From positions 6,205 to 70,204 of the forward strand of contig DASTLR010000007.1 of assembly GCA_035714745.1 (NCBI GenBank): a DNA stretch of 64,000 nt. Reading direction: 5' to 3'. The DNA comes from Minisyncoccota bacterium. GTDB lineage: Bacteria > Patescibacteriota > Minisyncoccia > Phycocordibacterales > UBA6065. Below, piece by piece: positions 1,476 through 25,348 of the stretch (within the stretch, counting starts at the first letter, position 1; every line of letters starts with the position of its first letter). The position numbers were made by a program, and so were the translations under genes. The notes under the pieces were generated by a model that did not search any database, was not told where the DNA came from, and saw only the letters and a list, made by a program, of their open reading frames with translations.

Positions 1476-1524
1476 ATGCGTTCGATTACTGTGGTAATGC
1501 CTCTAGTATACCGCGTCTGGCACC

Positions 1525-2143: not shown

Positions 2144-2217
2144 TGCCGGATCGTCTAATGGTAGGACGTCGCTCTCTGAAAGCGAAAATTTTGGTTCGAT
2201 TCCAAGTCCGGCAACCA
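2144..2217 (+). tRNA. tRNA-Gln (anticodon CTG)
   Basis: Cloverleaf folds by hand: acceptor TGCCGGA/TCCGGCA, D-arm, anticodon stem TCGCT/AGCGA with loop CTCTGAA (anticodon CTG), T-arm TTGGT-TCGATTC-CAAG, discriminator A and encoded CCA. Confidence 0.85.
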
Positions 2218-2248
2218 AGTTGAGAGTAGTTTTTATCACTCAGGATCG
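2212..2248. repeat. attL-like direct repeat (overlaps tRNA-Gln 3' end)
   Basis: CAACCAAGTTGAGAGTAGTTTTTATCACTCAGGATCG recurs with about 33/37 identity at 22756-22792. The GC content drops sharply immediately downstream. Confidence 0.7.
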
Positions 2249-2263
2249 TTTATTGAATAACAA

Positions 2264-2290
2264 AACCGCCTATTGGCGGTTTTGTTGCCT
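2264..2290. terminator. bidirectional rho-independent terminator hairpin
   Basis: AACCGCC-TATT-GGCGGTT stem-loop with T-runs on both strands. It lies between the tRNA-Gln and the 3' end of the multicopper oxidase gene. Confidence 0.55.
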
Positions 2291-2291
2291 T

Positions 2292-3902
2292 CTATTGAAC
2301 CTTGAAATTGAGCATCATTCCGGCCTCCAAATGTTCTGAAATGTGGCAGTGCGCCATCCATTCTCCTAGATTATCCATTTCAACGAGAATCTCGACAGTA
2401 TCCCCTTTCTCTATGAGCGCCGTGTCTTTCCAGACAAGATTCTGATTTCTTTCGCCGTTGGTCGAAAGAACAAGGAATCTCTGGCCATGGAAGTGGATAG
2501 GGTGTTGCATAGGGTGTTCTGAATTTGGATCATTGAAGATCCTGATTTTCACTAGATCGCCCTTCTTGAAAGTCCAATTTATATTATCTCCGGTCTTTCC
2601 TGTATCCTGATCAGTAATTTTCCACTGAACAGAGTCAGCGTAGGACATCTCGTTCATCATCGCCATGGTATCCTCCCACTCAATTTTATCTTCGTCGCTT
2701 CCGCCCATAGTCATTCCTTCGCTGTTCATCATGGTACCGTCAGGCATCATATGCATGCCGTTGTTCGCCATCATTTCTCCGCCATGCATCGCGTGACTTC
2801 CATTCATGCTCATACTTCCCATATTCACAGTAAGAGAGATATTCTTGTCTGCTGCTTTTGAGAAGTAAGAATCGAGATTTGGAATAGCTTTGCGTATGTC
2901 ATTATTCGAACGCAATGTAGTGAACTGCTCCTTATATGATTTTGCTATCACGTGAGGCAATACAGAGATTTTTCCCATGATATACGTTTTGGAAGGAGTC
3001 TTATGCTCGAGAGAAAATTGTCCCGGCTTCTCGAAGAGCACATCAATCACCGCGCGTTCGGAAGGACCGAGAACGATGCTATTCACAAAGGATTCTTTCT
3101 CGTATCTTCCATTGTCGCCTCCCACTAATTTCATTTTTGCTCCTGGGATCGCAAGGTTGAATACTCGAGTATTCGCCGTATTCGTGACGTAAAACCTGAC
3201 AACTTCTTCCTGTTCAACAGAAAGCGCGTAGCTGTCACTGCCATTCACAAGCATCACATTTCCGAACCTGCCCATGAGAGCGTGATCTACGGTCTCTCCG
3301 AAAGGGGCGATCTCTCCGTTTTCCATCAAGAGATCATCGATTACGAGAGGAATTTCCCTGTTCGCGGCAGGCCAATAGGTCTGATCAGCCGGAGAAACGA
3401 TATAGTTTCCATAAAGCCCTAATTCTTGGGCGTAATCTTCTCGAAGGTGAGGGTGATACCAATACACTCCTGTATCCGGGAATTTTATTTTGTAACTAAA
3501 AGTCTCTCCTATGCCCACTTCCTTTTGCGTGCTTCCAGGCACCCCATCGAATTCATTATCGAGGCGGATTCCGTGAGAATGAATCGTCGTGGGCGCGTCT
3601 ATGTTGTTCGTGAAATTGATCGTTATCTCTGACCCTTGCGGTGCCTTCAGTATTGGGCCCGGTATTGATCCGTTATACGCGAGCATTTTCACCTCTCTTC
3701 CGGCGATCTTCTTCTTGACTATGTTTGCAGTGAGATTATAAGTATCTCCATTCTTGAGATTAACCACTTTTGCCTCCTGTGCTTCTGAGAGACCTGATAT
3801 GTCAGGAGATGTGAATCCGTTCTGTTTTTCTGTATTGAACAGCGCGAAACCCAAGATTCCGATTATGACGACTGCCAGTATGATGAATAATTTGTTCTTC
3901 AT
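2292..3902 (-). CDS. multicopper oxidase (CueO/CopA-type), secreted
   Basis: Signal peptide is present. Copper-site motifs WYHPHL, HPIHFHG and the C-terminal HCHISEHLEAGMM (type-1/trinuclear Cu ligands) match. Confidence 0.9.
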   Translation of the reverse strand: MKNKLFIILAVVIIGILGFALFNTEKQNGFTSPDISGLSEAQEAKVVNLKNGDTYNLTANIVKKKIAGREVKMLAYNGSIPGPILKAPQGSEITINFTNNIDAPTTIHSHGIRLDNEFDGVPGSTQKEVGIGETFSYKIKFPDTGVYWYHPHLREDYAQELGLYGNYIVSPADQTYWPAANREIPLVIDDLLMENGEIAPFGETVDHALMGRFGNVMLVNGSDSYALSVEQEEVVRFYVTNTANTRVFNLAIPGAKMKLVGGDNGRYEKESFVNSIVLGPSERAVIDVLFEKPGQFSLEHKTPSKTYIMGKISVLPHVIAKSYKEQFTTLRSNNDIRKAIPNLDSYFSKAADKNISLTVNMGSMSMNGSHAMHGGEMMANNGMHMMPDGTMMNSEGMTMGGSDEDKIEWEDTMAMMNEMSYADSVQWKITDQDTGKTGDNINWTFKKGDLVKIRIFNDPNSEHPMQHPIHFHGQRFLVLSTNGERNQNLVWKDTALIEKGDTVEILVEMDNLGEWMAHCHISEHLEAGMMLNFKVQ

Positions 3903-3911
3903 AGGATTTGA

Positions 3912-4916
3912 TTATATACCACACCCGCTGCTGCGCCTCTGTGAGGTCGCTCCACCAGTATCGACCCCGCAACCCGATCCACCACCTGAAGACTGGATCG
4001 GGCCCCTTACCTGTGAGGCGATTTTACTAAATCCCTGGGCACTCGACATGCTTGCACCTAATATCGTCTGAGGGTTGGCAGTCTTCCAGTCCCCACCACT
4101 CTGCCGTATGAATGTTGCAAGGATCTCATACTGATCAGGGAACCAGAACGAGTTGACTGCGACGCCGGCTTTATACATCTCCGCTTCAGTCGCGCCCTGC
4201 GAAGCCATCAGTTCAAGAAGCGCGAGCATCGCCATTCCATGATTGCAGTCTGGGAAATGCGTCGAGTTACCGCAACATGGTCGATACACGGTACGAGAGA
4301 CTTTGTCTACGAGTGCCTGCTGCTCGGGCGTTAGATTAAAGAAAACGTGTTTGCTGTAGTGGTCCATAGCGTTTCCTTTTGCCATCGTCCATCCTCCCGT
4401 AGAAGCGAAATTTTGCGCGCCGCCGTATCGTTTGTCCACCATTTCTCCCTGAGTTAGAATTGGATTGTCTTGAGCCAGTCCGAGCGCCCAGAGAAGGTTT
4501 AGGATGAGGCCTGCATTTTTTGGCGTAATAACGAGCCTGTCGGTGCTTTTTCCAAAAAGAAGCTTCTCATCATCTTTTGAAAATTGGCCTCGCTCTTCAT
4601 ACAATGCCCTGAGTCTCTCTCCATCGATAGCGCCAGTCTTCACTAATTGAACCCCCAGATCGCCCCAGACCACAGGAAGCCTGACTCCCGATAAGGGAGT
4701 CAACTCCTCATCAACAAGAGTTGTGTCCTGAGTTGGTTCATTTTCCCTGACTTGAGAAGCTTTAAGAGTCCTATACCGATCATCGGAGCTTGATTTCAAG
4801 AAAATTCCTGAGGCTACAATCACGCCCGCAATAACGATTGCTCCAGGGAGCATATATTTGCTTTTTGAGTCTTCGCGAACGGCTTCGTGATGTTCATGTG
4901 AATGATGTGTATTCAT
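3912..4916 (-). CDS. hypothetical His-rich membrane-anchored protein (possible metal-binding)
   Basis: N-terminal MNTHHSHEHHE followed by a TM segment, then the Cys cluster RPCCGNSTHFPDCNHGM. It lies inside the copper cluster. The family is not recognised. Confidence 0.35.
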   Translation of the reverse strand: MNTHHSHEHHEAVREDSKSKYMLPGAIVIAGVIVASGIFLKSSSDDRYRTLKASQVRENEPTQDTTLVDEELTPLSGVRLPVVWGDLGVQLVKTGAIDGERLRALYEERGQFSKDDEKLLFGKSTDRLVITPKNAGLILNLLWALGLAQDNPILTQGEMVDKRYGGAQNFASTGGWTMAKGNAMDHYSKHVFFNLTPEQQALVDKVSRTVYRPCCGNSTHFPDCNHGMAMLALLELMASQGATEAEMYKAGVAVNSFWFPDQYEILATFIRQSGGDWKTANPQTILGASMSSAQGFSKIASQVRGPIQSSGGGSGCGVDTGGATSQRRSSGCGI

Positions 4917-4940
4917 GGTATTTATGAATTGTTTATTTGG

Positions 4941-5591
4941 TTAGCGAATGCGAGGGATAAATCGAGGGACCTGTAACAAGTAGGCCGTATATGGAGCGCC
5001 GAACTCTTTCGTCATATCCTTCTCCTCAGATCGTGCAAGACGAGCATACATCCAGACAAGGATAGGAAACATCACCAATGTGATGAGCGTGGGCCACTGA
5101 AACAGAAATCCGATCATGATGAGGACAAACCCCACATACTGCGGGTGGCTTATTTTCGAGTAAGGTCCATCTGTAGCGAACCGATGTTCCTGCTGTGCCT
5201 TGTGAAGCACGCGCCACGCTTTCGAGAGCAAGATGAATCCTCCTCCAATCGCCACGTAACTAACTATATGGAGAATGTTGAAGTGCGGATCTCCTCCCAG
5301 ATTGAATATCGTCTCCCACAAGTGGCCCGAATTGTGAGCGTATAGATCGGTTCCTGGGTTCTTGCTTAGTAACCACCCAGAAAGGAGGTATATCGTGAGC
5401 GGGAATCCATACATCTCAGCGAAGAGGGCGACTATGAATGCGCTGAAGGCCCCGAAAGACCGCCAATCGCGCTTCGTCTTCGGCTTAGCGAAACTGAAAG
5501 CGAAGATGATAAACACCAGAGAATTCAAGACGACCATGAACCATAGACCATAAGATGAGCTGAACATGGCTTTTACTGGTTTAACTCCCAT
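4941..5591 (-). CDS. ICMT/PEMT-family membrane methyltransferase
   Basis: Multi-TM protein with DGPYSKISHPQYVGFVL and ARLARSEEKDMTKEFG, which fit the RHPxY / EE-x-x-L motifs of isoprenylcysteine carboxyl methyltransferase-like proteins. Confidence 0.65.
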   Translation of the reverse strand: MGVKPVKAMFSSSYGLWFMVVLNSLVFIIFAFSFAKPKTKRDWRSFGAFSAFIVALFAEMYGFPLTIYLLSGWLLSKNPGTDLYAHNSGHLWETIFNLGGDPHFNILHIVSYVAIGGGFILLSKAWRVLHKAQQEHRFATDGPYSKISHPQYVGFVLIMIGFLFQWPTLITLVMFPILVWMYARLARSEEKDMTKEFGAPYTAYLLQVPRFIPRIR

Positions 5592-6019
5592 GGGTAACTT
5601 CTTTCTCTGCCACCGAATCCAGAGATCTTCAAAAGAATCGAACGAGGTCTCGGATCAAGCGCCTTGAAAATGAGCTTGCCGGACCTGTGATGACCTCCCT
5701 CAGGGTCTCCCTCCCACCTCAGAGGCTCTAAGACCCTCCCGTCGTCGCTTACGATGTTTGCCGATCGAGTAAGATCCTGATCAAGAGAACCTGTATGTGT
5801 GTTAAGCGATACCTCAAAAACCCATTCCGATGAAGCAAGGTCTACAGGCTCAATCCCGATATCAATGTTTTCCGCCGAATCAGACGTAGACTCGAGCATA
5901 TCCATGCCCGCATTCGCATCGTTTGGATAGATGGATATCTCGCTTCGACGAGCAGATATCATAAACCCGACGACGCCGAGGACCGCTATGAGGCCGAGGA
6001 CGATAAGCTTATTCTTCAT
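5573..6019 (-). CDS. hypothetical secreted/membrane-anchored protein
   Basis: N-terminal signal/anchor sequence. No recognisable domain. Confidence 0.35.
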   Translation of the reverse strand: MKNKLIVLGLIAVLGVVGFMISARRSEISIYPNDANAGMDMLESTSDSAENIDIGIEPVDLASSEWVFEVSLNTHTGSLDQDLTRSANIVSDDGRVLEPLRWEGDPEGGHHRSGKLIFKALDPRPRSILLKISGFGGRERSYPWELNQ

Positions 6020-6458
6020 AATTTTTAATGAGAATTATTTTTCTGATAATGAACGCAAGACCTGCGATGTTTGCCAATATTCCGACCCAGAAGAACTCAA
6101 CTTGGTATGCGCCGATAAAAGCAAGGGCTCCAGTCGCTCCCAATATCGGTAGCACGTTCACCAAGTAGTGGGCGCAACAAGAGATCATGGACAGCGTCGA
6201 TGTCGTTCCTGTCACAGCTATCGTCTTCGACGATACCTTTCTACAAAGATTAGATGCGAGTCCTTTAAAATACAGATACAAGCCAACTTGCGCGCCGAAT
6301 CCGAGGGCAAGAGTCAGGAGAAACGGCCAGTACAATCCGAATTGCTTGCTCGCGAAAGCGGTTCCCGAAACAAGTGAGACTACCCCAAAATACACTCCGA
6401 GCAGTGCGATTGAGGCAGTGATGCCTATGATGTAAGATTTTCGATCGGTCTCTTTCAT
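6009..6458 (-). CDS. hypothetical 4-TM membrane protein
   Basis: Four hydrophobic helices and a CC pair (SCCAHYL). Confidence 0.35.
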   Translation of the reverse strand: MKETDRKSYIIGITASIALLGVYFGVVSLVSGTAFASKQFGLYWPFLLTLALGFGAQVGLYLYFKGLASNLCRKVSSKTIAVTGTTSTLSMISCCAHYLVNVLPILGATGALAFIGAYQVEFFWVGILANIAGLAFIIRKIILIKNYEE

Positions 6459-6667
6459 TGCTTTTTTACGAACTCATTCGGATGTGCCTCAAACTGCTTT
6501 CGGCAGTGTTCGGAGCAGAAGTGATAGTCACGACCTTCGAAGGTGAGACTCGGCATGCCCGACGTTGCTTCCATGCCACAGACGGGGTCGACAAGTGTAT
6601 TCTTAGGCTCAACCTTATATCCGAATCGAGCAAGTTTCTTTATGATTCCCTTAATTCTTTTTCTCAT
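6455..6667 (-). CDS. YHS/TRASH-domain metal-binding protein
   Basis: VDPVCGMEA...YHFCSEHCRKQF matches the YHS (CGM) copper-binding domain. Start chosen at the internal Met so that it does not overrun the upstream small gene. Confidence 0.55.
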   Translation of the reverse strand: MRKRIKGIIKKLARFGYKVEPKNTLVDPVCGMEATSGMPSLTFEGRDYHFCSEHCRKQFEAHPNEFVKKQ

Positions 6668-6878
6668 GACTTTGTGATTTATCTGACCATTCAGCTTCTC
6701 TAACCTCATCTTTTTTCTCGCGACTACGCATAGCCATATATCCGAGGACCGCGACCGCGAGAAACGCAAAGACGACCCACTTTCCACCACCCAGGGAGCC
6801 AGCACCGAAGATAATGAGGATGAGCGGTAATCCGCAGCAAATCGCCATCATCCAAAGATTTGATTTGTCAGAATCCAT
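6651..6878 (-). CDS. small membrane protein (CCG motif)
   Basis: Two TM helices. The MDSDKS start leaves a 5-nt gap to the upstream redoxin gene. The family is not recognised. Confidence 0.35.
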   Translation of the reverse strand: MDSDKSNLWMMAICCGLPLILIIFGAGSLGGGKWVVFAFLAVAVLGYMAMRSREKKDEVREAEWSDKSQSHEKKN

Positions 6879-6882
6879 GTTT

Positions 6883-7557
6883 TTACTGGTTAGATCGGAT
6901 CGCATCTACTTTCTCTGAAATAAGGTCATTATTGATTCCCATTCTCGGATCGTCATAGACAAATCTCACGACCCCTGCGGCGTCTATGACTACATAGCTA
7001 TGGCCAGGATACGCGCCCTTGTGCATGGAAGACGGCGTAGCGAGCATGCCGAGAGACGACGAAACGTTCTTATCCGTGTCGAAGAGAACCTTCGCGCCTG
7101 CGAGCTTCGGCATTTTCGCCACCGCTGTCCCCCAATTAGACGCTGAATCCACGACAATCGAATAAGAAGCAACTGATTCTGAATTTAGCCTTGGATCCGA
7201 GGAGAGCTGCACCATCTGATTCCAACAGGACGGATAGCACATGAGTCCTTCATTGAAGAATAGGACCACGGTCTTACCCTTAAGCTCTGAGAGACGAAGT
7301 GTATTGCCGTCCTTATCAGCGAGGCTGAAGTCCGGTGCAGGCTTATCGACGAGATCCTTTATCTCCGAAGCAGTCGAGGGCTGGCTTGAGTGATGGCCCG
7401 ACATGTCTCCCGAATTCGAGCGGGCCATGTGAGAACCGCCGGCGCTTGCTTGCGCTTGATCAGAGTCTCCCGAATTATAGTTTGCATATAGAACACTACC
7501 GATAATCGCAAGAGCTATGATCACGAAGCCGTAAAATATCTGATTTGAATTTTTCAT
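6883..7557 (-). CDS. thioredoxin-fold redoxin (AhpC/TSA-ResA-like), membrane anchored
   Basis: APDFSLADKDGNTLRLSELKGKTVVLFF is the AhpC/TSA-redoxin N-terminal signature. An active-site Cys pair (CYPSC) follows. Confidence 0.6.
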   Translation of the reverse strand: MKNSNQIFYGFVIIALAIIGSVLYANYNSGDSDQAQASAGGSHMARSNSGDMSGHHSSQPSTASEIKDLVDKPAPDFSLADKDGNTLRLSELKGKTVVLFFNEGLMCYPSCWNQMVQLSSDPRLNSESVASYSIVVDSASNWGTAVAKMPKLAGAKVLFDTDKNVSSSLGMLATPSSMHKGAYPGHSYVVIDAAGVVRFVYDDPRMGINNDLISEKVDAIRSNQ

Positions 7558-7572
7558 TCTTTTAGTTAGTTT

Positions 7573-8466
7573 TTACTTAGTTGATTTCCACTGCCTGAGA
7601 GCGACCCATGTGATAAGCGCAGCGATAGCCGTAACGATGAGAAGCCAGCCGATTACGGGGAGTCGAACGATTCCCGATAACGTTTCAGTTATCTTCGCAG
7701 CATAGATGTTTATGACGACGCCGCTTCCTGCGTGGGACAGAAGCTTTCCTGTAAATGCAAGATAGAGCGTTATGATTCCCATACCGAGGAACATGAGAGC
7801 AGACACCGACTCCATGAGCGTAATCTCGACTTTTTTAGATCCGAGAGAATAGGTTACCGGCGCAGCGAATTTCTCATGGAGCTTTCCTGACACCTTCGAG
7901 CTATCGAGAATGAAAGCGAGGATGAAGAGGGGCGCTACCATTCCAAGCACATACGCCAGAGTATAGATGCCGCCCCAGAAGAGAGAACCTGGCATAGCTG
8001 CAAGAGCAAGGACGCCGGCCAAGACAGGGGCGCAACATGTGGTCGCTATACCTGAGAATATTCCCAAGGAATAAACTGACACCGCATTGTGTTTTTTGAG
8101 CCGAGGCGTGACATGAAACGGCAACTTGAGATGAACTCCTGTGAGAGTCGACAAACCGAGAGCTATGAGCAGAATGCTGCCCGCGACGAAGATGGGCGTA
8201 TGGTAGGTGCTGAATACCTGTCCAAGTGCCGCCACGCCAAGTCCCAAAGGCAGAAACACGGTCAGTATCCCGAGAAAGAATATGAAGGTCATGAGAAAGA
8301 CCTTGTATTTTTCTCGAAAGATCGAGGCAAGGTATGAAGGCAGGAGAACAGTTATACAGCACGGGGCGAAGAGCGCTGCCACACCGGCGACAAAGGCCGA
8401 GATGATAGAAGCTCCGAGTAACATGTCCATGATGTTCTGATGAAGTTGATAAGAGATTCCAAGCAA
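7573..8466 (-). CDS. cytochrome c biogenesis CcdA/DsbD transmembrane-domain protein
   Basis: Multi-TM protein with FAPCCITVLLPSYL and TTCCAPVL, which fit the DsbD-family Cys-containing TM helix pattern. Confidence 0.65.
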   Translation of the reverse strand: MLGISYQLHQNIMDMLLGASIISAFVAGVAALFAPCCITVLLPSYLASIFREKYKVFLMTFIFFLGILTVFLPLGLGVAALGQVFSTYHTPIFVAGSILLIALGLSTLTGVHLKLPFHVTPRLKKHNAVSVYSLGIFSGIATTCCAPVLAGVLALAAMPGSLFWGGIYTLAYVLGMVAPLFILAFILDSSKVSGKLHEKFAAPVTYSLGSKKVEITLMESVSALMFLGMGIITLYLAFTGKLLSHAGSGVVINIYAAKITETLSGIVRLPVIGWLLIVTAIAALITWVALRQWKSTK

Positions 8467-8534
8467 GCAAAAAAGTCCCGTGAAAAAGGGACTTCAGGTA
8501 GCACAAATCTCCTTATCGAAAGAGAGAGTGCTAC

Positions 8535-8930
8535 CTACGCGAGAGACGGACTCAGTTCAAAGCGAGAAAGCCAGCTATGGACCTTATGTTTGAAAAAATA
8601 ATAAGCTTCGAGTGATCTGCGCCTATAGAAAACAAATAGCTTGTCTTGAGAAGAGAATAGAAAGGCGAGCGACCCAAGAAAAACGACAACAAAGGCTGCG
8701 AGAGCCAGGAGAGTACTCGCAAAAATGGAAAGCGTCGCATTCATCGCGCTCTGATATACAGAGATATTGTGGAGCGCCTCACCCCACTGCATCGGAGGAC
8801 AGGTCGTATTCGGCATCTCAGGATCACAACTCATCTGAGCATGGTTCATACCGATAAAGCCAAATACGCCCGAAAGTAATACAGCGAGGAGAAGCAGATA
8901 TCCGATTTTGTTTAAAGAAATCTTCGTCAT
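8535..8930 (-). CDS. hypothetical membrane protein
   Basis: Two hydrophobic segments and Cys/Pro-rich loop CDPEMPNTTCPP. Confidence 0.35.
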   Translation of the reverse strand: MTKISLNKIGYLLLLAVLLSGVFGFIGMNHAQMSCDPEMPNTTCPPMQWGEALHNISVYQSAMNATLSIFASTLLALAAFVVVFLGSLAFLFSSQDKLFVFYRRRSLEAYYFFKHKVHSWLSRFELSPSLA

Positions 8931-9012
8931 TTCATTACCTCACATTAGCACTTCCATTTTACCATTTTTAGTCTCGACACGCAATTTCATTGTTTCGAAA
9001 TATAACGTATCT

Positions 9013-11421: not shown

Positions 11422-11435
11422 AAAATTAAATAATA

Positions 11436-11705: not shown

Positions 11706-11712
11706 AGCTTAA

Positions 11713-11733: not shown

Positions 11734-11770
11734 CCGCAAGAGCGTCGGTGGATAACTTTTATGGATCTAC

Positions 11771-13755: not shown

Positions 13756-13764
13756 ATCATTCCT

Positions 13765-14906: not shown

Positions 14907-14917
14907 CCTCCTCCCTT

Positions 14918-16198: not shown

Positions 16199-16355
16199 TG
16201 TGTCACGTGCGCTAGCGAATAAATAGACAGAGGAATCACAAAAGCCTGACTTCATACGAAGGCTCAGCGCACCAAAATCTGATGCACTCAGGCTTTATAT
16301 GAGGTCAGGCGGGTTAAATATGTCTATTTAAGCGGCACCAACACTCTATGTTTCC

Positions 16356-16712: not shown

Positions 16713-16736
16713 GACAAAATCGTAGCATTCTCATTA

Positions 16737-16768
16737 TGTGTGTACAATGTGTATAACCTGTGTACAAC
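16737..16768. promoter_or_regulatory. three tandem TGTGTA(C/T)AA repeats (putative operator) in divergent promoter region
   Basis: TGTGTACAA at 16739 and 16759, and TGTGTATAA at 16748. Each has a TGTACA palindromic core. The repeats lie 50-80 bp upstream of the LexA-like gene. Confidence 0.5.
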
Positions 16769-16820
16769 ATTTCTCGCGAAATGTCTTGCATGAGTAAAGT
16801 AGAAGAGGTAGGATTGGGTC

Positions 16821-17462
16821 ATGCATCAGATACAGAAAAAGCTCATAGAGCTCATCAGCAACCGCGAAGACGCAGGTTCGCTTAGCCTCAGGAAGATGGC
16901 GGAGATTGTCGGCGTACCAAATCGGCCCCAGACCATCAAACACCACCTCCAACAGCTCGAGAAGAACGGGCTGATCCAAATGAACCTTGAGGAGAAGTTC
17001 CTTAAGCTCGTGAAGAAAGGCTACAACAAGCCCGTAGCGAGCCCGCTCTATTCCCTGCCCGTCGTAGGCATGGCGAACTGCGGACCAGCCGCCGACATAG
17101 CCGAAGAGAACGTGAGCCAGTACCTCAAAGTATCGTCGAGGATGCTCCCCCGCAACAAGGAGAGGCTCTACGCCCTCATCGCGGACGGCCAGTCCATGAA
17201 CAAGGCGAAGATAGACGGCAAGACGATAGAGGACGGTGACTTTGTTCTCGTGGACGGAAATTGCAAGACGTTTAAGAACGGCGACATTGTAGTTGCGGTC
17301 ATCGACGGCATGGCGACCATCAAAAAGTATAGGTTCAACAAAGGGGATGAGACCATCGTTCTCGAGGCGGATTCAACGGAGAAGTACCTCCCCATCTTTC
17401 TCCATGAGGGCGACGACTTCCTCCTGAACGGGAAGGTTATCGGCATTATCAAAGCTAAGTAA
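16821..17462 (+). CDS. LexA/CI-like repressor (wHTH + S24 self-cleaving peptidase)
   Basis: N-terminal winged HTH. The C-terminal ADGQSMNKA...GDFVLVD...K fits the Ser/Lys dyad fold of S24 peptidases. Confidence 0.8.
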   Translation: MHQIQKKLIELISNREDAGSLSLRKMAEIVGVPNRPQTIKHHLQQLEKNGLIQMNLEEKFLKLVKKGYNKPVASPLYSLPVVGMANCGPAADIAEENVSQYLKVSSRMLPRNKERLYALIADGQSMNKAKIDGKTIEDGDFVLVDGNCKTFKNGDIVVAVIDGMATIKKYRFNKGDETIVLEADSTEKYLPIFLHEGDDFLLNGKVIGIIKAK

Positions 17463-17469
17463 TTACAAC

Positions 17470-18663
17470 ATGGCAGCAAAAATTGAATTCTTTCCCGTAG
17501 ACAACGGAGACATGACACTCCTGACGCTTGAGAGCGGGCGCCAGGTGCTCATTGATATCCACATCAGACAGATTGATGATTCTGAGGAATCACCACCAGA
17601 CGTTACGACCATGCTCCGCAATCGACTGAAACGAGATGAACAGAACCGCCTGTACGTCGACGCTTTCCTGCTCACCCACCCAGACGAGGATCATATCCTC
17701 GGACTCTCTGAACACTTCCATCTCGGACCAATCGAAGACTGGGACGAGGATTCCGACAAAATTATCATCCGAGAGATGTGGTCGTCTCCGATCATATTCC
17801 GCCGAAAGAGTACGCTGGCTGAAAAAGCGAGCGTCACACTTTGCGATGACGCCATCGCTTGGTGGAACGAGGCGCGCCGACGAGTAAAAGCTTTCAGGGA
17901 TGGAGACGGTCTCAACGACGGTAACCGAATTCTTGTGCTAGGAGACGATATTGGCGATAAGGAAGCGGGATTGGAACAAATCAATATCCGCATCGGAAAT
18001 AGCTTTAGCCACATCTGCGGAACCGAGGACGGCTCTGTGATTATTGACTTGCTCGGCCCATTGCCTCAGCAGGAAACCGAAGAGGACGAAGAGGCATTGG
18101 CGAAAAACCGCTCAAGCGTAATAGCCCGTTTCCGATTCACGATAGACGATACAGATGATGCATTCATGTTCCTCGCCGGAGGAGACGCCGAAGTGTTCGT
18201 ATGGGAGCGCATTTGGGACATGCATAAAGACCATCCCGCAACCCTCTCCTACGACCTTCTTCAGACACCTCATCATTGCTCATTTCATTCAATGTCCTCA
18301 GACAGCTGGTCCGAGCGAGGCGAGGATGCGAAGGTGAATTCGAAAGCGTTGAACGCTCTGTCCCAAGCAAAGAAAGGCGCAAGCATAGTTTCTAGTTCAA
18401 AGCCGATTTCGGACGATGACGATGATCCTCCTTGCGTTCGCGCCGCGCGCGAATACGAGGCAATTGCCAAAAGGGTTGGTGGAAAGTTCATATGTACAAT
18501 GACACACCACGGAGAGGGAGAGCCTGACGTGCTTCTCTTCACGCTTGGCGAAGATGGTGGAAATAAAGGATACCATTCCCCTATTCCAACCGGCCCAGTA
18601 ATCTCTCGCCTCGACCCGCCAACAGGAGAGTTTGAAAAACACGGTGGCGGTCGTTATGCCTAA
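17470..18663 (+). CDS. metallo-beta-lactamase-fold protein
   Basis: FFPVDNGDMTLL...LIDIH...LLTHPDEDH (HxHxDH motif) and later His and Asp ligands. The 3' end overlaps the next gene by 32 nt. Confidence 0.78.
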   Translation: MAAKIEFFPVDNGDMTLLTLESGRQVLIDIHIRQIDDSEESPPDVTTMLRNRLKRDEQNRLYVDAFLLTHPDEDHILGLSEHFHLGPIEDWDEDSDKIIIREMWSSPIIFRRKSTLAEKASVTLCDDAIAWWNEARRRVKAFRDGDGLNDGNRILVLGDDIGDKEAGLEQINIRIGNSFSHICGTEDGSVIIDLLGPLPQQETEEDEEALAKNRSSVIARFRFTIDDTDDAFMFLAGGDAEVFVWERIWDMHKDHPATLSYDLLQTPHHCSFHSMSSDSWSERGEDAKVNSKALNALSQAKKGASIVSSSKPISDDDDDPPCVRAAREYEAIAKRVGGKFICTMTHHGEGEPDVLLFTLGEDGGNKGYHSPIPTGPVISRLDPPTGEFEKHGGGRYA

Positions 18664-20467
18664 GTCAACAACAACACACCGCAGGACATTCCGTGAGTCC
18701 ATTTCGAATGTCGACAAGTTTCTTCGAGAAAAACTCGGAAACGCGATTAGCACCCTCTCAAATAGAGAGCTGAGCGGTTATGATAACGGCCATCGCTTTG
18801 TGCGTGGATGGAAAATCAAAGACAAATCGCTCGAGGCAATATTTAAAGTCTTGATTCCAAGCGACTTTCCATACGGTGTCCCAAGAATCGCGATTGAGGA
18901 TCTAGAAGAACCCGACAGGGATCTCGGTAAAACTGTCCCCCACATTGAAGGCAAGGGTCTCCTCTGCCTCCCGAAGCTCAATGCTTCTCCAAGCAACCCG
19001 ACAGGACTTGTGCGCGAGCTACTCCAGATGGCGAAGACATACATAGAGACCTTCTCTAACCAACCAGAAAGGGTTGATCAAGATTTCCAAGACGAGTTCA
19101 TCTCTTATTGGAATCGACATAGGACAAAGGATGCGGACCCGATCTTGTCGCTAATCGACCCCCTCTCTGAGACGCATGAGATAATGGTCAGCAAGACGAA
19201 GGATGGTTTCCTGATCGTTGGTGAATCGACCGAGACCATCAGCAGCTGGCATAAAAATCGATTTCCGATGACGAAAGAGCTACCTTTTCAAAAAGGTCTC
19301 TTTATAAAATTGGACAAACCCCCGATACCAGAGCAGTTTCCAGATACAGTTTCGGAACTTAAGAATCTGATCGTATCTAATGCTCCAAGCGCCCTAAATG
19401 CCTTTATGGGGCGCCTAATAAACGTGAACCCGTATGTCGTTATAATGTCGTTCGCCAAGGGCTCCGAAGTCGGACTTATCGGCGTAAGCATTCTTAGCAA
19501 CACCGACAAGTCGCGAATCACCCGCGGCTTCAGAGGCACCGCCTACATGACCCCCGAAATGAAACTGAATCGACTGACAGAGCACTCGGAAACCAAAAGA
19601 TGTCAGGTAGTCCGCCTAGAACATGATTGGGTGCACGGCCGAGGCAAAGACACGTCTCAAGGTATCTTAAAGAAATCGAGGGTAACAATCCTTGGTTGCG
19701 GTTCTCTGGGTTCTCATACGGCAGTACGGCTCGCACAAGCGGGCGTGGGACAAATCACCCTAGTGGACCCAGAAAGCCTTGATGCCGCTAACGTGGGGCG
19801 ACATGCTTTGGGAATCCGCCACATAGAAAGGTCGAAAGCATATTCTCTTTCAGAGGAGCTAAGGGAGCGATTCCCTCACCTTAAAATCCTACCTTGTCCT
19901 ACGAAATGGGAGATTCTGATGGAGAAAAATTCAGATCATTTTAAAAAAGCCGACCTCGTCATAAGCACGATTGGTGAATGGCATGCGGAGGGGCCATTAA
20001 ACGAATGGCAGTCATCAGAAGATTTAGCCCCACCAATCCTATACGGTTGGATGGAGGCGCGCGCATCGGTCGCACACGCAGTGCTGATAAAAAAACCAGG
20101 TCCATGTCTTCAGTGCGTATTGGAAGAAAACGGCGACATGAGGGCGCCTGACTCTGAAGGTTGGCCTGATAACGATGGATTGGAATCAGAACCAGCGTGC
20201 GGCTCAACGTTTCAACCCTACGGACCCATCGATCTAGCTTTCGCTGAAGCCCTCGTCTCGGACCTGGCCATCGCCATGTTGACAGGAGATCAGGTAGAGA
20301 GCATTCATAGGGTACACGCGGTGTCTAAAAGCCGCATGGAAAAACTTCGAGGAAAATGGACAGATACCCACAAAAAGTTTCGTCCCGAGGGTTTCAACGG
20401 GAGCTTCCAATATGAGAGGCCCTTAAAGAAACACAAAGAGTGTCCACTCTGCTCACAAAAAACATGA
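18632..20467 (+). CDS. Cap2-like E2-E1 fusion protein (UBC-like E2 domain + ThiF/MoeB E1 domain)
   Basis: N-terminal PHIEGKGLLCLPKL fits the E2 HPN-x-G-x-(I/L)C(L) catalytic-Cys motif. The central VTILGCGSLGSHTAVRLAQAGVGQITLVDPE is an E1 Rossmann/GxGxxG motif. The C-terminus has CLQC and CPLC Zn Cys pairs. Confidence 0.85.
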   Translation: MKNTVAVVMPKSTTTHRRTFRESISNVDKFLREKLGNAISTLSNRELSGYDNGHRFVRGWKIKDKSLEAIFKVLIPSDFPYGVPRIAIEDLEEPDRDLGKTVPHIEGKGLLCLPKLNASPSNPTGLVRELLQMAKTYIETFSNQPERVDQDFQDEFISYWNRHRTKDADPILSLIDPLSETHEIMVSKTKDGFLIVGESTETISSWHKNRFPMTKELPFQKGLFIKLDKPPIPEQFPDTVSELKNLIVSNAPSALNAFMGRLINVNPYVVIMSFAKGSEVGLIGVSILSNTDKSRITRGFRGTAYMTPEMKLNRLTEHSETKRCQVVRLEHDWVHGRGKDTSQGILKKSRVTILGCGSLGSHTAVRLAQAGVGQITLVDPESLDAANVGRHALGIRHIERSKAYSLSEELRERFPHLKILPCPTKWEILMEKNSDHFKKADLVISTIGEWHAEGPLNEWQSSEDLAPPILYGWMEARASVAHAVLIKKPGPCLQCVLEENGDMRAPDSEGWPDNDGLESEPACGSTFQPYGPIDLAFAEALVSDLAIAMLTGDQVESIHRVHAVSKSRMEKLRGKWTDTHKKFRPEGFNGSFQYERPLKKHKECPLCSQKT

Positions 20468-20961
20468 AAGACTTAACCTACAAACTACCTGGGTCTTTGG
20501 GCATAGTAATCTTCAGCGAGGCTGCGCTCAGAACAATCTCAACGTATCGTCAGTGCGGCTTCTTCAGCAAGGAAGCAGGAGGGCAGCTATTTGCAGAAAT
20601 TGAGAACGGTGTCATGCGAATAGTAGACGCGACCGAACCAAGAAAAAAAGACCGTCGAGGGAAATTCAGCTTTTGGCCCCACCGACCAACTGAACAAACC
20701 GAAATCAAGGAACGCTTTAAGAAAAAAGGCTTGCACTTCGTAGGCGACTGGCACACTCACCCTGAATCCACGCCATCCCCTTCTGGGAGCGATGCAAGAA
20801 GTATCGCAGAGACCATGAGGCAAAGTCGCCATACCCTGCCAGGCATCCTATTAGTAATCATAGGGACCTTAGAGCTTCCCGACGGTCTATATGTCGGATT
20901 CCAAACCAAAACGATGCTCTACAAGCTTGATGTGTTGACGACTGGCGAAAAAGTGGTTTAA
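20440..20961 (+). CDS. Cap3-like JAB/JAMM (MPN+) isopeptidase
   Basis: EAGGQLFAEIE...GDWHTHPESTPSPSGSD matches the E...HxH-x7-S-xx-D JAMM zinc site. The gene overlaps the E2-E1 gene by 28 nt. Confidence 0.85.
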   Translation: MSTLLTKNMKDLTYKLPGSLGIVIFSEAALRTISTYRQCGFFSKEAGGQLFAEIENGVMRIVDATEPRKKDRRGKFSFWPHRPTEQTEIKERFKKKGLHFVGDWHTHPESTPSPSGSDARSIAETMRQSRHTLPGILLVIIGTLELPDGLYVGFQTKTMLYKLDVLTTGEKVV

Positions 20962-20970
20962 GCGTATTAT

Positions 20971-21573
20971 TTGCTCATGACCGATAAGATATTCTCTAAG
21001 CTGAACGTATACGACCAGATCGGATATCTGCTTGTTGGCAGCATCGCCTCACTGGTTTTCCTTTTCAACAACAAATTACTCGGCTCCCCTATCGACATCC
21101 CGGCTTTTGATATCAGTAGCCTAATCATATGGGCGATCGTGGCTTATTTCGTGGGTCATATCGTCCACGCAGTTGCCAATATAATCATCAAAGAAAATAA
21201 AACCGATTTCTCCGAATCGGACAAGGAGATACTTGAACGAGGAAAGCACTTCTTCGACCTCAAGAAGCAAGAACTCAATGCCACATATCTCTTGTGTTAC
21301 ATGCTCGCGTCTGCAAAAGATGTAACGGGCCAAGTCCAATCATTCAATGCGTACTACAGCCTGTATCGGGGCTGGTTCATAATTTTCCTGCTAGAGATGA
21401 ATTTCCTTTCATTTACGAGCATAATGCATGGCTTCAGCCTGCACATCCTCATACTTTTCAGCATAGCCTCATTCATTGCCTATCTCACCCTCAATAGAAC
21501 ACGAAGGTTCTACGGCTACTCTCGCGCAAAGACACTTCAAACATTTACTCTGATTGAGAAACTCAAACTATAA
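20971..21573 (+). CDS. multi-TM membrane protein (candidate effector)
   Basis: About four hydrophobic helices. The start is 10 nt after the JAB gene stop, and the 3' end overlaps the next gene. Confidence 0.45.
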   Translation: MLMTDKIFSKLNVYDQIGYLLVGSIASLVFLFNNKLLGSPIDIPAFDISSLIIWAIVAYFVGHIVHAVANIIIKENKTDFSESDKEILERGKHFFDLKKQELNATYLLCYMLASAKDVTGQVQSFNAYYSLYRGWFIIFLLEMNFLSFTSIMHGFSLHILILFSIASFIAYLTLNRTRRFYGYSRAKTLQTFTLIEKLKL

Positions 21574-22141
21574 TCAGAATCGTATGAAGCCAAACAATTT
21601 TCTTCAGAAAATCGGCATAGAAAGAGGAAATCTCAAACCGTTTTCACTCTTCGTGCTGGGCATTATCCTAGTCACAACCGCATTTACTGTAACTCCATTC
21701 TTTGCAACTATCGGTCCAGCAATTCTTATCATCGTCTTTGGTGTCTTTTTCTCAATCCTGTGGTTTGTTGCTGGCTATGCTGTATTCCGCTCACTCCTCG
21801 TCGCGAGCGTCGGGCTCAGCTTCATCATATTCATAGGCCAGTCTTACTGCGACCTGCCTATTGACGAGCGCGTGGCAGACAGCGCGCTGATGACCCTTAT
21901 TGGATTCGGCTTCATCTATGTGACAGCGCAATTCGGCAAGTCTCTCTACAAGGAATTATTCGGAGACAAAGATGCAAAGGAAGATTGGAAGCAAAAGGGC
22001 ATGATTGGCGTTCTTAAAGAGATCAATCAGAACAAGCATTCATGGCTCGCGCTCATCACATATGGACTGCTTATAAGTCTGTTCATCTGGCAGGTTAATA
22101 GCGTAATCAGACCAATTATTAACGGCCTCTGCGTGTACTAA
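21554..22141 (+). CDS. multi-TM membrane protein (candidate effector)
   Basis: About four or five hydrophobic helices. Last gene of the overlapping operon. Confidence 0.45.
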   Translation: MRNSNYNQNRMKPNNFLQKIGIERGNLKPFSLFVLGIILVTTAFTVTPFFATIGPAILIIVFGVFFSILWFVAGYAVFRSLLVASVGLSFIIFIGQSYCDLPIDERVADSALMTLIGFGFIYVTAQFGKSLYKELFGDKDAKEDWKQKGMIGVLKEINQNKHSWLALITYGLLISLFIWQVNSVIRPIINGLCVY

Positions 22142-22142
22142 T

Positions 22143-22313
22143 ATGGCATTTGCAACGAATGGTACGCCCAACATGAAGGGTCTTGAGGATAAGGTAGAGA
22201 AGCTCCAAGAACTGCTCAAGAAAAGGAGGTGGTGGGAAACTACCTGGGTGCAGATCATTGCCTTTATAGGGGCAGTTGCTGGTATCGTCAGCCTCTATAC
22301 CCTTTTCGAGTAG
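22143..22313 (+). CDS. small C-terminally anchored membrane protein (56 aa)
   Basis: MAFATNGTPNMKGLEDKVEKLQELLKKRRWWETTWVQIIAFIGAVAGIVSLYTLFE. Not in the ORF track (<60 aa). It starts 2 nt after the previous gene. Confidence 0.3.
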   Translation: MAFATNGTPNMKGLEDKVEKLQELLKKRRWWETTWVQIIAFIGAVAGIVSLYTLFE

Positions 22314-22335
22314 CCACTGTCGCTCCCAAACAAAA

Positions 22336-22633
22336 TATGGAGAAAAAGAATTACAGGATGAAGGCCGAGGCAGGAACCTTCAAGCTCACCCTGAATGTGC
22401 TGAGGGTCACTCACATGAGGCCCGGCTTCAAGCGTTTCCTAAGAAGGGTCTGGGCAGGCTTTTCACTAAGTGGGGATACCACTAAACATCCCGAGGGAGT
22501 GATACTGAGCAGGGTCGTCGATAGAGAGAACAATAAGTACGAAGAGCTGGTAATCGATAATAAGACCGGCACGGTCGCACGATCCGTACAAGAACCGCTA
22601 ACCGAGCATTTCTCCAGATCAAAGAAATCATAA
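22336..22633 (+). CDS. hypothetical protein
   Basis: Internal Met (MEKKNYRMKAEAG) of the 22229-22633 ORF. No domain recognised. Confidence 0.3.
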
Positions 22634-22755
22634 TCCTTAAAGCAGTGTCACTTTTGTCACATTTTGGTCGCTCAGGACGGGTCGATTTGATAAAATTAGG
22701 AACGTCACAAAAGCGTTGCTGGGTATAGCATCGTTTGGTTCTATCCCGAGAACGC

Positions 22756-22792
22756 CAACCAAGTTGAGAGTAGTTTATATCGCTCAGGACGG
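22756..22792. repeat. attR-like direct repeat with degenerate tRNA-Gln 3' fragment
   Basis: CAACCAAGTTGAGAGTAGTTTATATCGCTCAGGACGG. A degenerate copy of the tRNA T-arm/acceptor lies upstream (TTGGTTCtATcCCgAGaaCGcCAACCAAG). An extra copy of TCGCTCAGGACGGGT sits at 22667-22681. Confidence 0.65.
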
Positions 22793-22841
22793 GTGCTCTA
22801 GTATCAAAGTTACAAATCAGAAAATCTGATACAATTTTGGT

Positions 22842-23822
22842 ATGAAAAATTATCAAGGGGATTTTATAGCTCCTACAGTCATCGGGTTAATTATTTTAAT
22901 TGCGGTAGGCGGTGGAATATATTTTGTTCAAAAGAAAAAAGTTCAGCCGATAACCGAAGGAACAAATAACGTCTCTGGCTTAACAACCTACAAAAACGAA
23001 CAGTATGACTTTGAGATTTCATACGATTCGTCAAAGCATTCTATAAAAGCAGAGGGAGATAAAATCGTCGGTTATACAGATTACGATTTAATTTTTAACG
23101 AATCTAATAAGCGCGGATTTGAAGAGAGTCATACGTTGTATGCCTTTCCGAAAGAAGTTGCTGAAACAATAGACAATGCTATTAAGAGAGTGATCCTCAC
23201 ATCTGAACATAATCCTAAGGATGTGTGTAGAGCATTGCCCCTATCAGAAATGGGCGATTATACAAGAAGGTACATAGACTGCGGTGACACTGAGACTGAG
23301 TATAAAAATTACGAGAAGCTCCCAACCTATTATGTTGGACGTTCCCCATCAGCATACTTCCTCTACAATCCATCGTATCCCCATGTTTTCTTTTACGCCG
23401 TGGGAGATCAAGTAAGTGACAATTTCTTGCTTACAGGCTTGAAATTCACCGGAGCAAGCAATGTGCCATCAATCAAAGTTACTTCTCCAAATGGCGGTGA
23501 AACTTGGAAAATGTCCGAACAGAAATCTATTGTTTGGACTTCATCTAACCTGCCAAGTAATGCAAAGGTTGGCATTAGGCTGAGGTCAGAAAAAGATTTT
23601 TCCTATTTCTGTGATCCTGTTGGGGCAGAAGTTTTAGCAAAGCAGGGTTCATTTGCTATCACCCCAGCAACTACTGTATGTGTCGGCATCACATCAAGTC
23701 GACCAGAAGACAGATTCAAGCTCACTGCTGGTAGGTATAAAGTCGAGCTCGGTGCCACGAATTACGGCGGTGGAAAGGGGCTAATGGATTCAAGTGACAA
23801 TTATTTCACCATTACGAATTAA
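22842..23822 (+). CDS. hypothetical membrane-anchored extracellular protein
   Basis: N-terminal TM anchor. The gene is low-GC. No recognisable domain. Confidence 0.4.
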   Translation: MKNYQGDFIAPTVIGLIILIAVGGGIYFVQKKKVQPITEGTNNVSGLTTYKNEQYDFEISYDSSKHSIKAEGDKIVGYTDYDLIFNESNKRGFEESHTLYAFPKEVAETIDNAIKRVILTSEHNPKDVCRALPLSEMGDYTRRYIDCGDTETEYKNYEKLPTYYVGRSPSAYFLYNPSYPHVFFYAVGDQVSDNFLLTGLKFTGASNVPSIKVTSPNGGETWKMSEQKSIVWTSSNLPSNAKVGIRLRSEKDFSYFCDPVGAEVLAKQGSFAITPATTVCVGITSSRPEDRFKLTAGRYKVELGATNYGGGKGLMDSSDNYFTITN

Positions 23823-23843
23823 AAGTCATCTCGTCTTTAGGTT

Positions 23844-25289
23844 ATGATCACGAAAGAGCTCATTGAACATATAAAAAATCAATCCGCTCTAGGGAAAAAT
23901 TCTCTGGATATAAAACAGGAGCTGATTTCTAGTGGTGGATGGTCAGCGTCAGATATAGATGAAGCGTTCAGGGTTATTAACTCCACACCAAGAAGATCGG
24001 TCCTGCCTTATATCTTTTCTGCTATATTATTCCTAGTTTTAGGAGGTGTCGCATTCGCGCATATAACGAAAAGCGCTCAACCCAACCTACGTCAGACCGT
24101 AGAAAATCCTGATGTCTCAGAAATGATATTTAGAGATAATTCTATAAATATCGATAACTCTAAAAATACCGTCGTCCCACCGATTCAAGACGAGACTAAA
24201 GAAGCTCCACTCGCTCAGGACCAAAAAACTCCTACAGAAAATCAGAAACCGATCAAAAGCTACAATCTCGGCACTATTTCTATCCGAGCAATCGTTGCAA
24301 ATATAGATGAAGTGAGCGATAAGTTTGGATCCTATGGGATGAAATTTGGTAAGTCGAAATTATCCGAAGTAGACCAAGCACTTCAGAGATTGAATACGTT
24401 TGTAAAGAAAAGTTCATACGAAAAAGCACAATTAGAATGGACTACCTCGGGTGTATATGAACTTGGGAGGGGTGTATGTGACAAGAGTTCGTATGGAGCC
24501 AAGGTAAATGATCTCATCGAACGAGCTTTGAAAGCTGCTGATTCAGAAAGTCCACTCGAAGACTATTCTTTCTACGTTGTAATTCATCCATTGCCCGATT
24601 GTCCGAGTGGTGAATATTGGAGTTATGAAGGACGGGGTCAATTCAAGACATATAGTCTCAATGGTAGGACCGTCAACCTAAGAGGCATACATATAAGCGA
24701 CTTGTCCGATCATTATCTCTTTCATGAATTTGGACACTCACTTGGCTATAAACTAGAAAAAGGAATCGGTCACCCCGACTATATGAACTGTCCAATAACA
24801 ACAAATGGCAGTGAAGTTCAAATCGCTATATCAAATACCTGTCGCCATATTTTCGATTTCAATAGTGGTGCAACACCGATCTACACAATGATGTCTACGC
24901 CAAACACTTTGGCTGATTATAGTGCTATCGAAAAGGAAACTGCTGATTGGTTGGATGGTTCCGATATCATTACAGCGACATCCGGAGAATATCTTTTATC
25001 AGCACTCGAACAAGCTGGACCAAGTCCGAAAGCTCTAAAAATTCCTATCCGGGGAACAAACTATACGGCATACGTGTCCTTCAGACTGCTCGGTGACAAC
25101 AAACCAAATGGTGTTATTTTGGATATAACAAACGGCGGAGTCGATAGCTTCCTTGTGACCAACAGTGCTGACAAAAATCAGCCACTCAAAATAGGGACAT
25201 CTTACCGTCTGGGGACAAATGGTCCGATCATACGGGTTATCAATATCGAAGATAATTCTGCTTCGGTCAGTATATCTAGCTCAAATTAA
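23844..25289 (+). CDS. membrane-anchored zincin-like metallopeptidase (HEFGH)
   Basis: N-terminal region followed by a TM helix. LFHEFGHSLGY contains the HExxH zinc-binding motif. Confidence 0.5.
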   Translation: MITKELIEHIKNQSALGKNSLDIKQELISSGGWSASDIDEAFRVINSTPRRSVLPYIFSAILFLVLGGVAFAHITKSAQPNLRQTVENPDVSEMIFRDNSINIDNSKNTVVPPIQDETKEAPLAQDQKTPTENQKPIKSYNLGTISIRAIVANIDEVSDKFGSYGMKFGKSKLSEVDQALQRLNTFVKKSSYEKAQLEWTTSGVYELGRGVCDKSSYGAKVNDLIERALKAADSESPLEDYSFYVVIHPLPDCPSGEYWSYEGRGQFKTYSLNGRTVNLRGIHISDLSDHYLFHEFGHSLGYKLEKGIGHPDYMNCPITTNGSEVQIAISNTCRHIFDFNSGATPIYTMMSTPNTLADYSAIEKETADWLDGSDIITATSGEYLLSALEQAGPSPKALKIPIRGTNYTAYVSFRLLGDNKPNGVILDITNGGVDSFLVTNSADKNQPLKIGTSYRLGTNGPIIRVINIEDNSASVSISSSN

Positions 25290-25348
25290 AAGCTCGCCCG
25301 ACTTGGAGCGAGTTTCGACAAAGTTTGAACGTATTTGTCTGATTACGT

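Follow-up and report, generated by a model that had tools for sequence, protein, structure and literature searches.

A probable serine-recombinase island in a genome of the Patescibacteriota, with the end of a tRNA gene as an unusual target and with elements in tandem

The 64,000-nt stretch of DNA analysed here, designated the window in the following (contig DASTLR010000007.1 of assembly GCA_035714745.1, from an uncultured, ultra-small Minisyncoccota bacterium), carries a tRNA-Gln(CTG) gene followed by a 20.5-kb element, X, which encodes a large serine recombinase (LSR). X probably stems from a phage-related element that carried terminase genes and belonged to Candidatus Paceibacterota, the group of CPR/Patescibacteria to which NCBI assigns the proteins of the source scaffold (306 kb, ENA metagenome BAND20-1). 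X is probably an integrative island that was inserted by its own LSR at the 3' end of the tRNA-Gln gene, in tandem with the remnant of a second element, Y. The features on which this interpretation is based are listed below, with B designating the bacterial half-site, P and P' the arms of the element's attachment site, and L numbers the loci used for comparison.

2144-2217, plus strand: tRNA-Gln(CTG), predicted by ARAGORN, with an Rfam tRNA match at 2144-2214 (62 bits)
2193-2215, plus strand: putative B, composed of the T-arm and the acceptor 3' strand, placed by alignment; element-free relatives end GGCAAC-A...
2216-22759: element X, 20.5 kb, between P' arm and P arm
2216-2250, plus strand: P' arm of X, its left end, CAAGTTGAGAGTAGTTTTTATCACTCAGGATCGTT; present after tRNA-Gln in L093 and L095 (28/35 each), absent from L002, L003 and L179
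11771-13054, minus strand: LSR, 427 aa, the inferred integrase, with Resolvase, Recombinase and Zn_ribbon_recom domains
22645-22759, plus strand: P arm of X, its right end, homologous to L093 4090-3963 (minus strand) and L167 12745-12845
22645-22660: box1 of the P arm
22668-22684: box2 of the P arm
22737-22759: T-arm/acceptor look-alike, GGTTCTATCCCGAGAACGCCAAC, identical to the tRNA 3' end at 17 of 23 positions
22756-22759: CAAC core of the P arm
22760-22796, plus strand: orphan P' arm, the second in the window, CAAGTTGAGAGTAGTTTATATCGCTCAGGACGGGTGC, with 31/35 identity to those of L093 and L095 and 30/35 to the left copy
22842-25289, plus strand: putative remnant of element Y, guanine-plus-cytosine (GC) content 0.41, its right limit of about 25340 being set by GC content alone
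within 22842-25289, plus strand: 326-aa membrane-anchored protein
23844-25289, plus strand: 481-aa zincin-like protein with an HEFGH motif

That a foreign island adjoins the 3' end of tRNA-Gln(CTG), as proposed in a preliminary description of this sequence, is borne out by three relatives (L179, L002 and L003) which possess the same tRNA gene and lack both the element and the repeat sequence discussed below. The closest relative found, L179 (PBP 73% identical; GC content 0.57-0.65 outside its low-GC stretches), is syntenic with the window on both sides: its genes for PIF1, SHOCT and PBP correspond to window 1-2013, and those for a 105-aa protein, a CTP-transferase and GH6 to window 30243-34062. 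The distance between the tRNA gene and the gene for the 105-aa protein amounts to about 5.8 kb in L179 versus 28 kb in the window. In L179 the tRNA end reads GGCAAC followed by ACGCACTT, with no recombinase nearby, and in L002 and L003 the same tRNA is followed by unrelated sequence. None of these three tRNA genes encodes the CCA end; in the window, the flank GGCAAC-A is replaced by GGCAACCA (2215-2217), and the element-derived bases 2216-2217 complete an encoded CCA, which tRNA-Gln thus possesses only together with the element. The GC content also changes at the tRNA end, although less steeply than the drop from about 62% to about 42% described previously: it is 0.596 in the left flank, 0.486 in 2218-22759, 0.407 in 22760-25340, 0.557 in 25341-29180 and 0.606 in the rest of the window.

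The 37-bp imperfect repeat that had been noted at the tRNA 3' end and again far downstream is real. Its copies at 2212-2248 and 22756-22792 are identical at 33 of 37 positions, including an exact 21-mer (CAACCAAGTTGAGAGTAGTTT) at 2212-2232 and 22756-22776, and a wider similarity extends over 75 nt with 77% identity (2190-2264 versus 22734-22808). Within the 64 kb the 21-mer is confined to these two places, whereas shuffled sequences predict 0. Both junctions are contained, at 99.98-100% identity, in independent assemblies of other samples (L001, L091, L092, L175) and are therefore no assembly artefact. Only 6 nt of the repeat belong to the tRNA, the remainder being element arm. The repeat as a duplicated attachment core was considered and rejected: the two copies are P' arms whose mutual identity (30/35) lies in the same range as that to P' arms in other genomes (28-31/35). 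The sequence common to the window, L093 and L095 after the tRNA is CAAGTYGAGnGTAGTTTATATCGCTCARGA (28-31/35 identity), and a GACC motif is found 12-35 nt past the tRNA in 12 of 21 loci compared with 5% of control windows (P ~6e-11). A metagenome scan with an 18-mer core yielded six matches, all of them due to chance and lacking tRNA context, an IMG/VR scan with the 21-mer yielded no matches, and one with a 17-mer of the P' arm yielded two chance matches inside a coding region.

The opposite end of X provides the second conserved arm. The homology between the P arms of L093 and the window spans GTGTCACTTTTGTCAC, TCGCYCARGACGGGTCG and the T-arm look-alike GGTTCTATCCCGAnnnnGCCAAC and ends at CAAC, after which unrelated DNA follows in L093. 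In this cleanly bounded element, CAAC is observed as the sole sequence common to attL and attR; these 4 bp are in keeping with the 2-bp crossover of large serine recombinases but fall short of the 6-8-bp overlap exchanged by tyrosine recombinases. The look-alike had previously been taken for a decayed copy of the tRNA T-arm and acceptor. Its likeness to the tRNA is genuine (17/23), but it is more similar between the window and L093 (20/23), and an arm that is better conserved among elements than it resembles the tRNA is to be regarded as a functional look-alike and not as a decaying duplicate. A further conserved feature is the box TCGCTCAGGACGGGTCG, of which one copy is found in the P arm, about 90 nt from the crossover, and another, in direct orientation, in the P' arm (window 22668-22684 and 22780-22796; L093 4054-4038 and 14703-14687); it has a P-arm homologue in L167 (12748-12764), even though the LSRs of L167 are only 32-35% identical to that of the window. 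An RNA fold of the P arm was not significant (z = -0.19), and the tRNA gave the only Rfam match.

The LSR, in which the Pfam domains PF00239, PF07508 and PF13408 are present, is encoded by a full-length open reading frame (ORF) and its residues R15-K16-S17 are invariant among 20 homologues; the nearest solved structures in the PDB are those of the integrases SPbeta SprA/YokA, TP901-1 and A118. In agreement with the preliminary description, it is the sole recombinase that Pfam detects among the island ORFs of at least 80 aa. More than 8000 homologues were found, many of them 65-81% identical and, where named, belonging to Paceibacterota or Patescibacteria. In the closest homologues, L093 (81%) and L095 (79%), a tRNA-Gln(CTG) gene is located on the 3' side of the LSR gene and on the opposite strand, exactly as in the window; tRNA-Gln(CTG) is likewise found with the LSR of L173 (67%) and tRNA-Gln(TTG) with that of L170 (68%). 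The link to tRNA genes is observed across the family: in a set of 72 LSR loci (68 loci from an IMG/VR scan with family alignment, plus L093-L095, L170 and L173), a tRNA gene is present downstream of the LSR gene in 22, in all 22 on the opposite strand, at a distance from the LSR stop codon of 120 nt to 5.6 kb (median 1.9 kb). The tRNA species vary by clade and include Gln-CTG, Gln-TTG, several Ser, Glu, Asp, Arg, Asn and Trp. The LSR gene had been described as lying in the middle of the island. This position is explained by interposed cargo, since 9.5 kb of copper-resistance genes separate the LSR gene from the tRNA; in L099, L106, L122, L141 and L149 the two are only 120-200 nt apart, which places the recombinase gene beside the attachment site.

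These data bear on the earlier proposal that the repeat at a tRNA gene is the signature of a tyrosine integrase that is missing or acts in trans. In this case, a tyrosine recombinase, either lost or provided in trans, would have inserted the 20.5 kb with duplication of a 21-37-bp core, and the LSR would be unrelated cargo or a resolvase. The 3' ends of tRNA genes are indeed the usual targets of tyrosine integrases, and both the 21-nt exact direct repeat including 6 nt of the tRNA and the tRNA-like stretch at the far end would suit such an event. However, no tyrosine recombinase was detected among the island ORFs scanned or the Pfam calls of L093-L096, a search that did not extend to the rest of the genome; L093, which has the same arms, possesses only the 4-bp common core; and each repeat copy resembles the arms of other elements as closely as it does its counterpart. 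Moreover, the distance of 120-200 nt between LSR gene and tRNA in several relatives corresponds to the usual arrangement of int and att, and the orientation towards the tRNA is the same in every locus that has one downstream. Insertion by a tyrosine recombinase is therefore very improbable, and the proposal does not stand against an LSR family tied to tRNA 3' ends.

At the right junction, CAAC at 22759 is followed by the second P' arm at the position where chromosomal DNA would be expected, and the segment 22737-22796 looks like an intact attP (P-O-P'). One P arm and two P' arms imply that two attachment sites took part, which fits the composite or sequential insertions suggested previously. 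It had also been noted that low-GC DNA continues past the second repeat with genes for two secreted proteins, one of them zincin-like, and this is confirmed by the GC content of 0.407, the HEFGH motif and N-terminal hydrophobic segments in both proteins. The 481-aa protein has only 26 homologues, all Paceibacterota-like, and the fusion of several of these to a peptidoglycan-binding domain points to a secreted cell-wall peptidase that mobile elements carry. One homologue is encoded between two LSR genes in L167, another 60 nt after tRNA-His in L169. Other family members also show tandem arrays: two LSR genes of the same orientation occur on each of five IMG/VR contigs; the array of L115, which has tRNA-Ser at its end, contains an internal junction between a tRNA-Ser-like P arm and a P' motif; and in L167 a second LSR gene directly adjoins a P arm whose final bases, CCGCA, are like those of the tRNA-Ser there. 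On the basis of these recurrent tandems and of the contexts of the 481-aa homologues, 22760-25340 is read as the remnant of a second element; neither a second P arm nor a chromosomal B' remnant bounding Y was found in the window.

The same layout might have arisen in a single event, in which two related elements, joined in a circular dimer or cointegrate with two attP sites, were inserted by way of one of these sites, the other being left internally and the distal copy later being mostly deleted. A canonical attP x attB reaction would suffice for this and would give exactly the order B-O-P' ... P-O-P' ..., in line with the resemblance of the internal junction (22737-22796) to an intact attP. 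The two parts differ, however, in GC content (0.486 versus 0.407), they have no gene in common and hence are no copies of one element, and no distal P arm is left. We consider a single event improbable, although stepwise accretion and dimer insertion are not separated by sequence alone.

For the stepwise insertion that we prefer, the following mechanism is likely. The LSR would bind the site of the circular element, in which the P arm (22645-22759) is joined to the P' arm (2216-2250), and also the tRNA-Gln(CTG) 3' end with its T-arm and acceptor strand, and would introduce a short staggered cut within CAAC at 2212-2215, a tetranucleotide made up of the final acceptor bases, the discriminator and the base after it. 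The tRNA body would stay intact, the first two bases of the element creating the encoded CCA, and cargo would have been gained on both sides of a core consisting of LSR, terminase-small-subunit (TerS)-like protein and ParB-methyltransferase. The sequence past the tRNA at the empty sites is not conserved (ACGCA in L179 and L002, AAATTG in L003, AACGAAG in L093), so the far half of the target may matter little. If so, a new element could use the tRNA together with the P' arm of a resident element and push older elements outward; in the order that we favour, X would have entered later, between the tRNA and the older Y, with the tRNA and P' of Y as its target. The anatomy of the island, the link of the family to tRNA genes, the conserved arms and the short core in L093 are shown directly by the data, whereas catalysis by the LSR, the exact cut position, the insertion order and any current activity are inferred.

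Several observations weigh against this interpretation. Only 22 of the 72 LSR loci have a tRNA gene, and none is present in 15 of the 23 loci with more than 5 kb downstream, so the link to tRNAs may fail in some clades. The P arm of about 115 bp and the direct repeat of the P' motif in box2 are not accounted for by the canonical model of a 50-bp attP, no clear dyad symmetry of inverted half-sites of about 20-25 bp around the crossover was seen (the conserved GACC lies about 20-27 nt into the P' arm, GGTTC of the T-loop about 21 nt into the B arm), and a recombination directionality factor was not identified. Recombination of attP with attL or attR lies outside the repertoire of canonical serine integrases; the tandem step therefore needs relaxed site choice or, again, insertion of a dimer or cointegrate. 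Y possesses neither a P arm nor a recombinase, its status as a remnant being derived from the orphan P' arm, the GC content and the contexts of homologues, and even in the nearest relative that lacks the element, the flanking PBP is only 73% identical. Finally, a circular form, an empty site or an excision scar was not found for the population of the window: look-ups of the exact proteins (PBP, LSR, 326-aa protein) retrieved only contigs identical to the window, all in the integrated arrangement, with no empty site or other context from the same population. Three contigs end inside the tRNA (2169, 2189 and 2217) and are identical to the window up to the break, which makes them uninformative with respect to polymorphism.

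The latter points also touch on the view that the locus is a fixed relic, i.e. a decayed prophage or satellite with an inactive recombinase and fossil attachment sites, whose layout results from deletions and homologous recombination at a hotspot. This view gains from the lack of the large terminase (TerL), which is present in 53 of the 72 relatives, from the lack of detectable structural genes, from the presence of the integrated form alone in five samples, and from stray T-arm-like fragments at such sites in L093 and L003. On the other hand, the LSR ORF is complete and its catalytic residues are conserved, neither arm has decayed, the level of conservation being the same as in other elements, and a relic would concern present activity only and be compatible with an LSR-driven origin. 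A fixed relic thus appears rather unlikely, though less so than a single event.

Apart from LSR and attachment arms, X is composed of a conserved core flanked by two cargo blocks:

2292-11705, minus strand: copper-resistance cargo (Pfam)
13381-14460, plus strand: two unknown ORFs of 124 and 231 aa, which occupy the TerL position of relatives
14457-14921, minus strand: TerS-like helix-turn-helix (HTH) protein (Pfam, PHROGs)
14918-16255, minus strand: ParB-N6/N4 DNA methyltransferase (Pfam, PHROGs)
16356-16712, minus strand: 118-aa protein, part of the conserved core block
16821-22633, plus strand: second cargo block with S24 repressor, 397-aa metallo-beta-lactamase-fold-like protein, E2-E1, JAB and small unknown ORFs

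The gene order of the core (14457-16712) is matched in L093-L096, and the family as a whole is characterized by LSR (72/72), methyltransferase (63/72) and TerS-like HTH protein (59/72), all but the core genes being variable. The LSR gene was also considered as the joint of two tandem elements (at about 13.3 kb), which was rejected because LSR, TerS-like protein and methyltransferase form one conserved block in relatives. TerL is truncated in L093 and absent from the window, and with a TerS-like protein only and no structural genes detected by Pfam or PHROGs, X does not qualify as an intact prophage. Long flanking direct repeats were not found in 20 other family loci, nor circular contigs among the family members in IMG/VR.

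The copper block encodes a multicopper oxidase, an ICMT-like protein, a YHS protein, a thioredoxin-like protein, a DsbD_TM protein, a P-type ATPase with a heavy-metal-binding domain, the repressor CsoR and unknown ORFs. It is regarded as cargo because it was not found in other LSR loci, with the exception of a partial ATPase match in L144. The block looks complete, and it is located between recombinase and tRNA in a bacterium of the candidate phyla radiation (CPR). In the second block, the operon 16821-20961 on the plus strand encodes a LexA/CI-like S24 repressor, the 397-aa protein with a weakly metallo-beta-lactamase-like N-terminus, an E2-E1 fusion protein and a JAB peptidase. PADLOC assigns the fusion protein to E1-E2 (Cap2-like, 531 bits) and the peptidase to JAB (Cap3-like, 180 bits); no CD-NTase cyclase was detected near 17470-20961 by PADLOC or Pfam, so the locus does not qualify as a type II cyclic-oligonucleotide-based antiphage signalling system (CBASS). 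The operon resembles the ubiquitin-transfer module of type II CBASS, lacking its cyclase.

Relatives carry other cargo. L122 contains genes for a reverse transcriptase and type III restriction-modification proteins and is devoid of capsid genes, and defence-like genes, frequent in the cargo of related elements, are located in L095 (1767-5477), L122 (3907-9676), L170 (11277-13541) and L173 (5365-8160), including those for an SNF2 helicase with DUF2779, a reverse transcriptase with type III restriction-modification, an AAA_13 ATPase and an SMC_N/AAA_21 protein.

Additional observations concern tRNA ends and base composition. L179 has low-GC stretches at about 5900-8800 and 16000-19000 (0.38-0.47 versus about 0.62), one of which directly follows tRNA-Gln, with no recombinase, and therefore points to a hotspot there too. 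Extra fragments resembling T-arms or tRNA 3' ends lie beside the tRNA genes in L093 (about 14660-14640 and 14575-14555), L003 (8425-8450) and L111 (about 16075-16055), as if left over from repeated insertion and decay. The window contains three further tRNA genes, Thr-CGT (53132-53205), Asp-GTC (55843-55918) and Met-CAT (55952-56027), with a GC content of about 0.53-0.55 nearby.

Beyond this locus, we propose tentatively, and with somewhat less than even confidence, an undescribed and very large Paceibacterota-specific LSR family which would use the T-arm and acceptor 3' end of tRNAs as a half-site, with the crossover at the discriminator/CCA, and would have been retargeted among at least ten tRNA species via the look-alike arm of attP. 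Such enzymes would tolerate element-type sequence past the crossover, so that terminase-bearing, capsid-less islands with defence and metal-resistance cargo pile up in tandem, and their attP would be unusually long and contain a conserved direct-repeat box. No account of this Paceibacterota family, nor of LSRs that target the ends of tRNA genes in CPR bacteria, was found, which in view of the incomplete literature coverage is absence of evidence only. If the proposal is true, the bacterial sites of these serine integrases would be predictable from tRNA 3' ends, which would aid the delimitation of islands in CPR genomes and could offer a starting point for integration vectors for Patescibacteria, for which, to our knowledge, few genetic tools exist. 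The locus also corrects an annotation reflex, since a tRNA gene with a direct repeat does not imply a tyrosine integrase.

Among known systems, the temperate phages with serine integrases (phiC31, Bxb1, A118, TP901-1 and SPbeta with SprA) have in common with the family the enzyme architecture, an int gene beside attP, as in the simplest relatives of the island, and a very short core common to attL and attR. Their sites are protein-coding genes or intergenic, and their attP is about 50 bp long with inverted half-sites. In contrast, the target here is a tRNA 3' terminus, attP seems to comprise about 150 bp with a direct-repeat box, and the element in the window is devoid of virion genes. Integration of a serine recombinase element at a tRNA 3' end has a precedent in the filamentous phiRSM phages of Ralstonia, which use a small serine recombinase of the resolvase/invertase type and a 13-bp site at the 3' end of tRNA-Ser (PMC4471427); here, however, the enzyme is large, the common sequence in L093 is about 4 bp, and many tRNA species are involved family-wide. 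Of 937 tycheposon-like elements of Prochlorococcus, 27 carry a large serine recombinase (10.1101/2020.12.28.424599). The tRNA islands of tyrosine integrases, including tycheposons, likewise have a hotspot at the tRNA 3' end, variable cargo and arrays of elements and remnants, whereas the island described here has no tyrosine recombinase, its end repeat did not arise by duplication of a core, and no element-borne copy serves to rebuild the tRNA.

The closest working analogue is the staphylococcal cassette chromosome (SCC/SCCmec), in which large serine recombinases (CcrAB or CcrC) target the 3' end of rlmH and defence genes are carried by cassettes arranged in tandem (PMC11470126). As proposed for the window, an LSR places DNA at the very 3' terminus of a conserved housekeeping gene, which stays functional, tandem cassettes contain internal copies of the attachment site, and the cargo comprises resistance and anti-phage functions (PMC11470126). 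In the same way as SCC cassettes grow, reduced genomes may gain copper resistance and ubiquitin-like defence modules by tandem accretion at a tRNA hotspot. The island differs from SCC/SCCmec in its target, which is a tRNA gene instead of rlmH, in its single recombinase of a different, Paceibacterota-specific clade, in its core of terminase and ParB-methyltransferase genes, and in its long P arm, which resembles the target tRNA.

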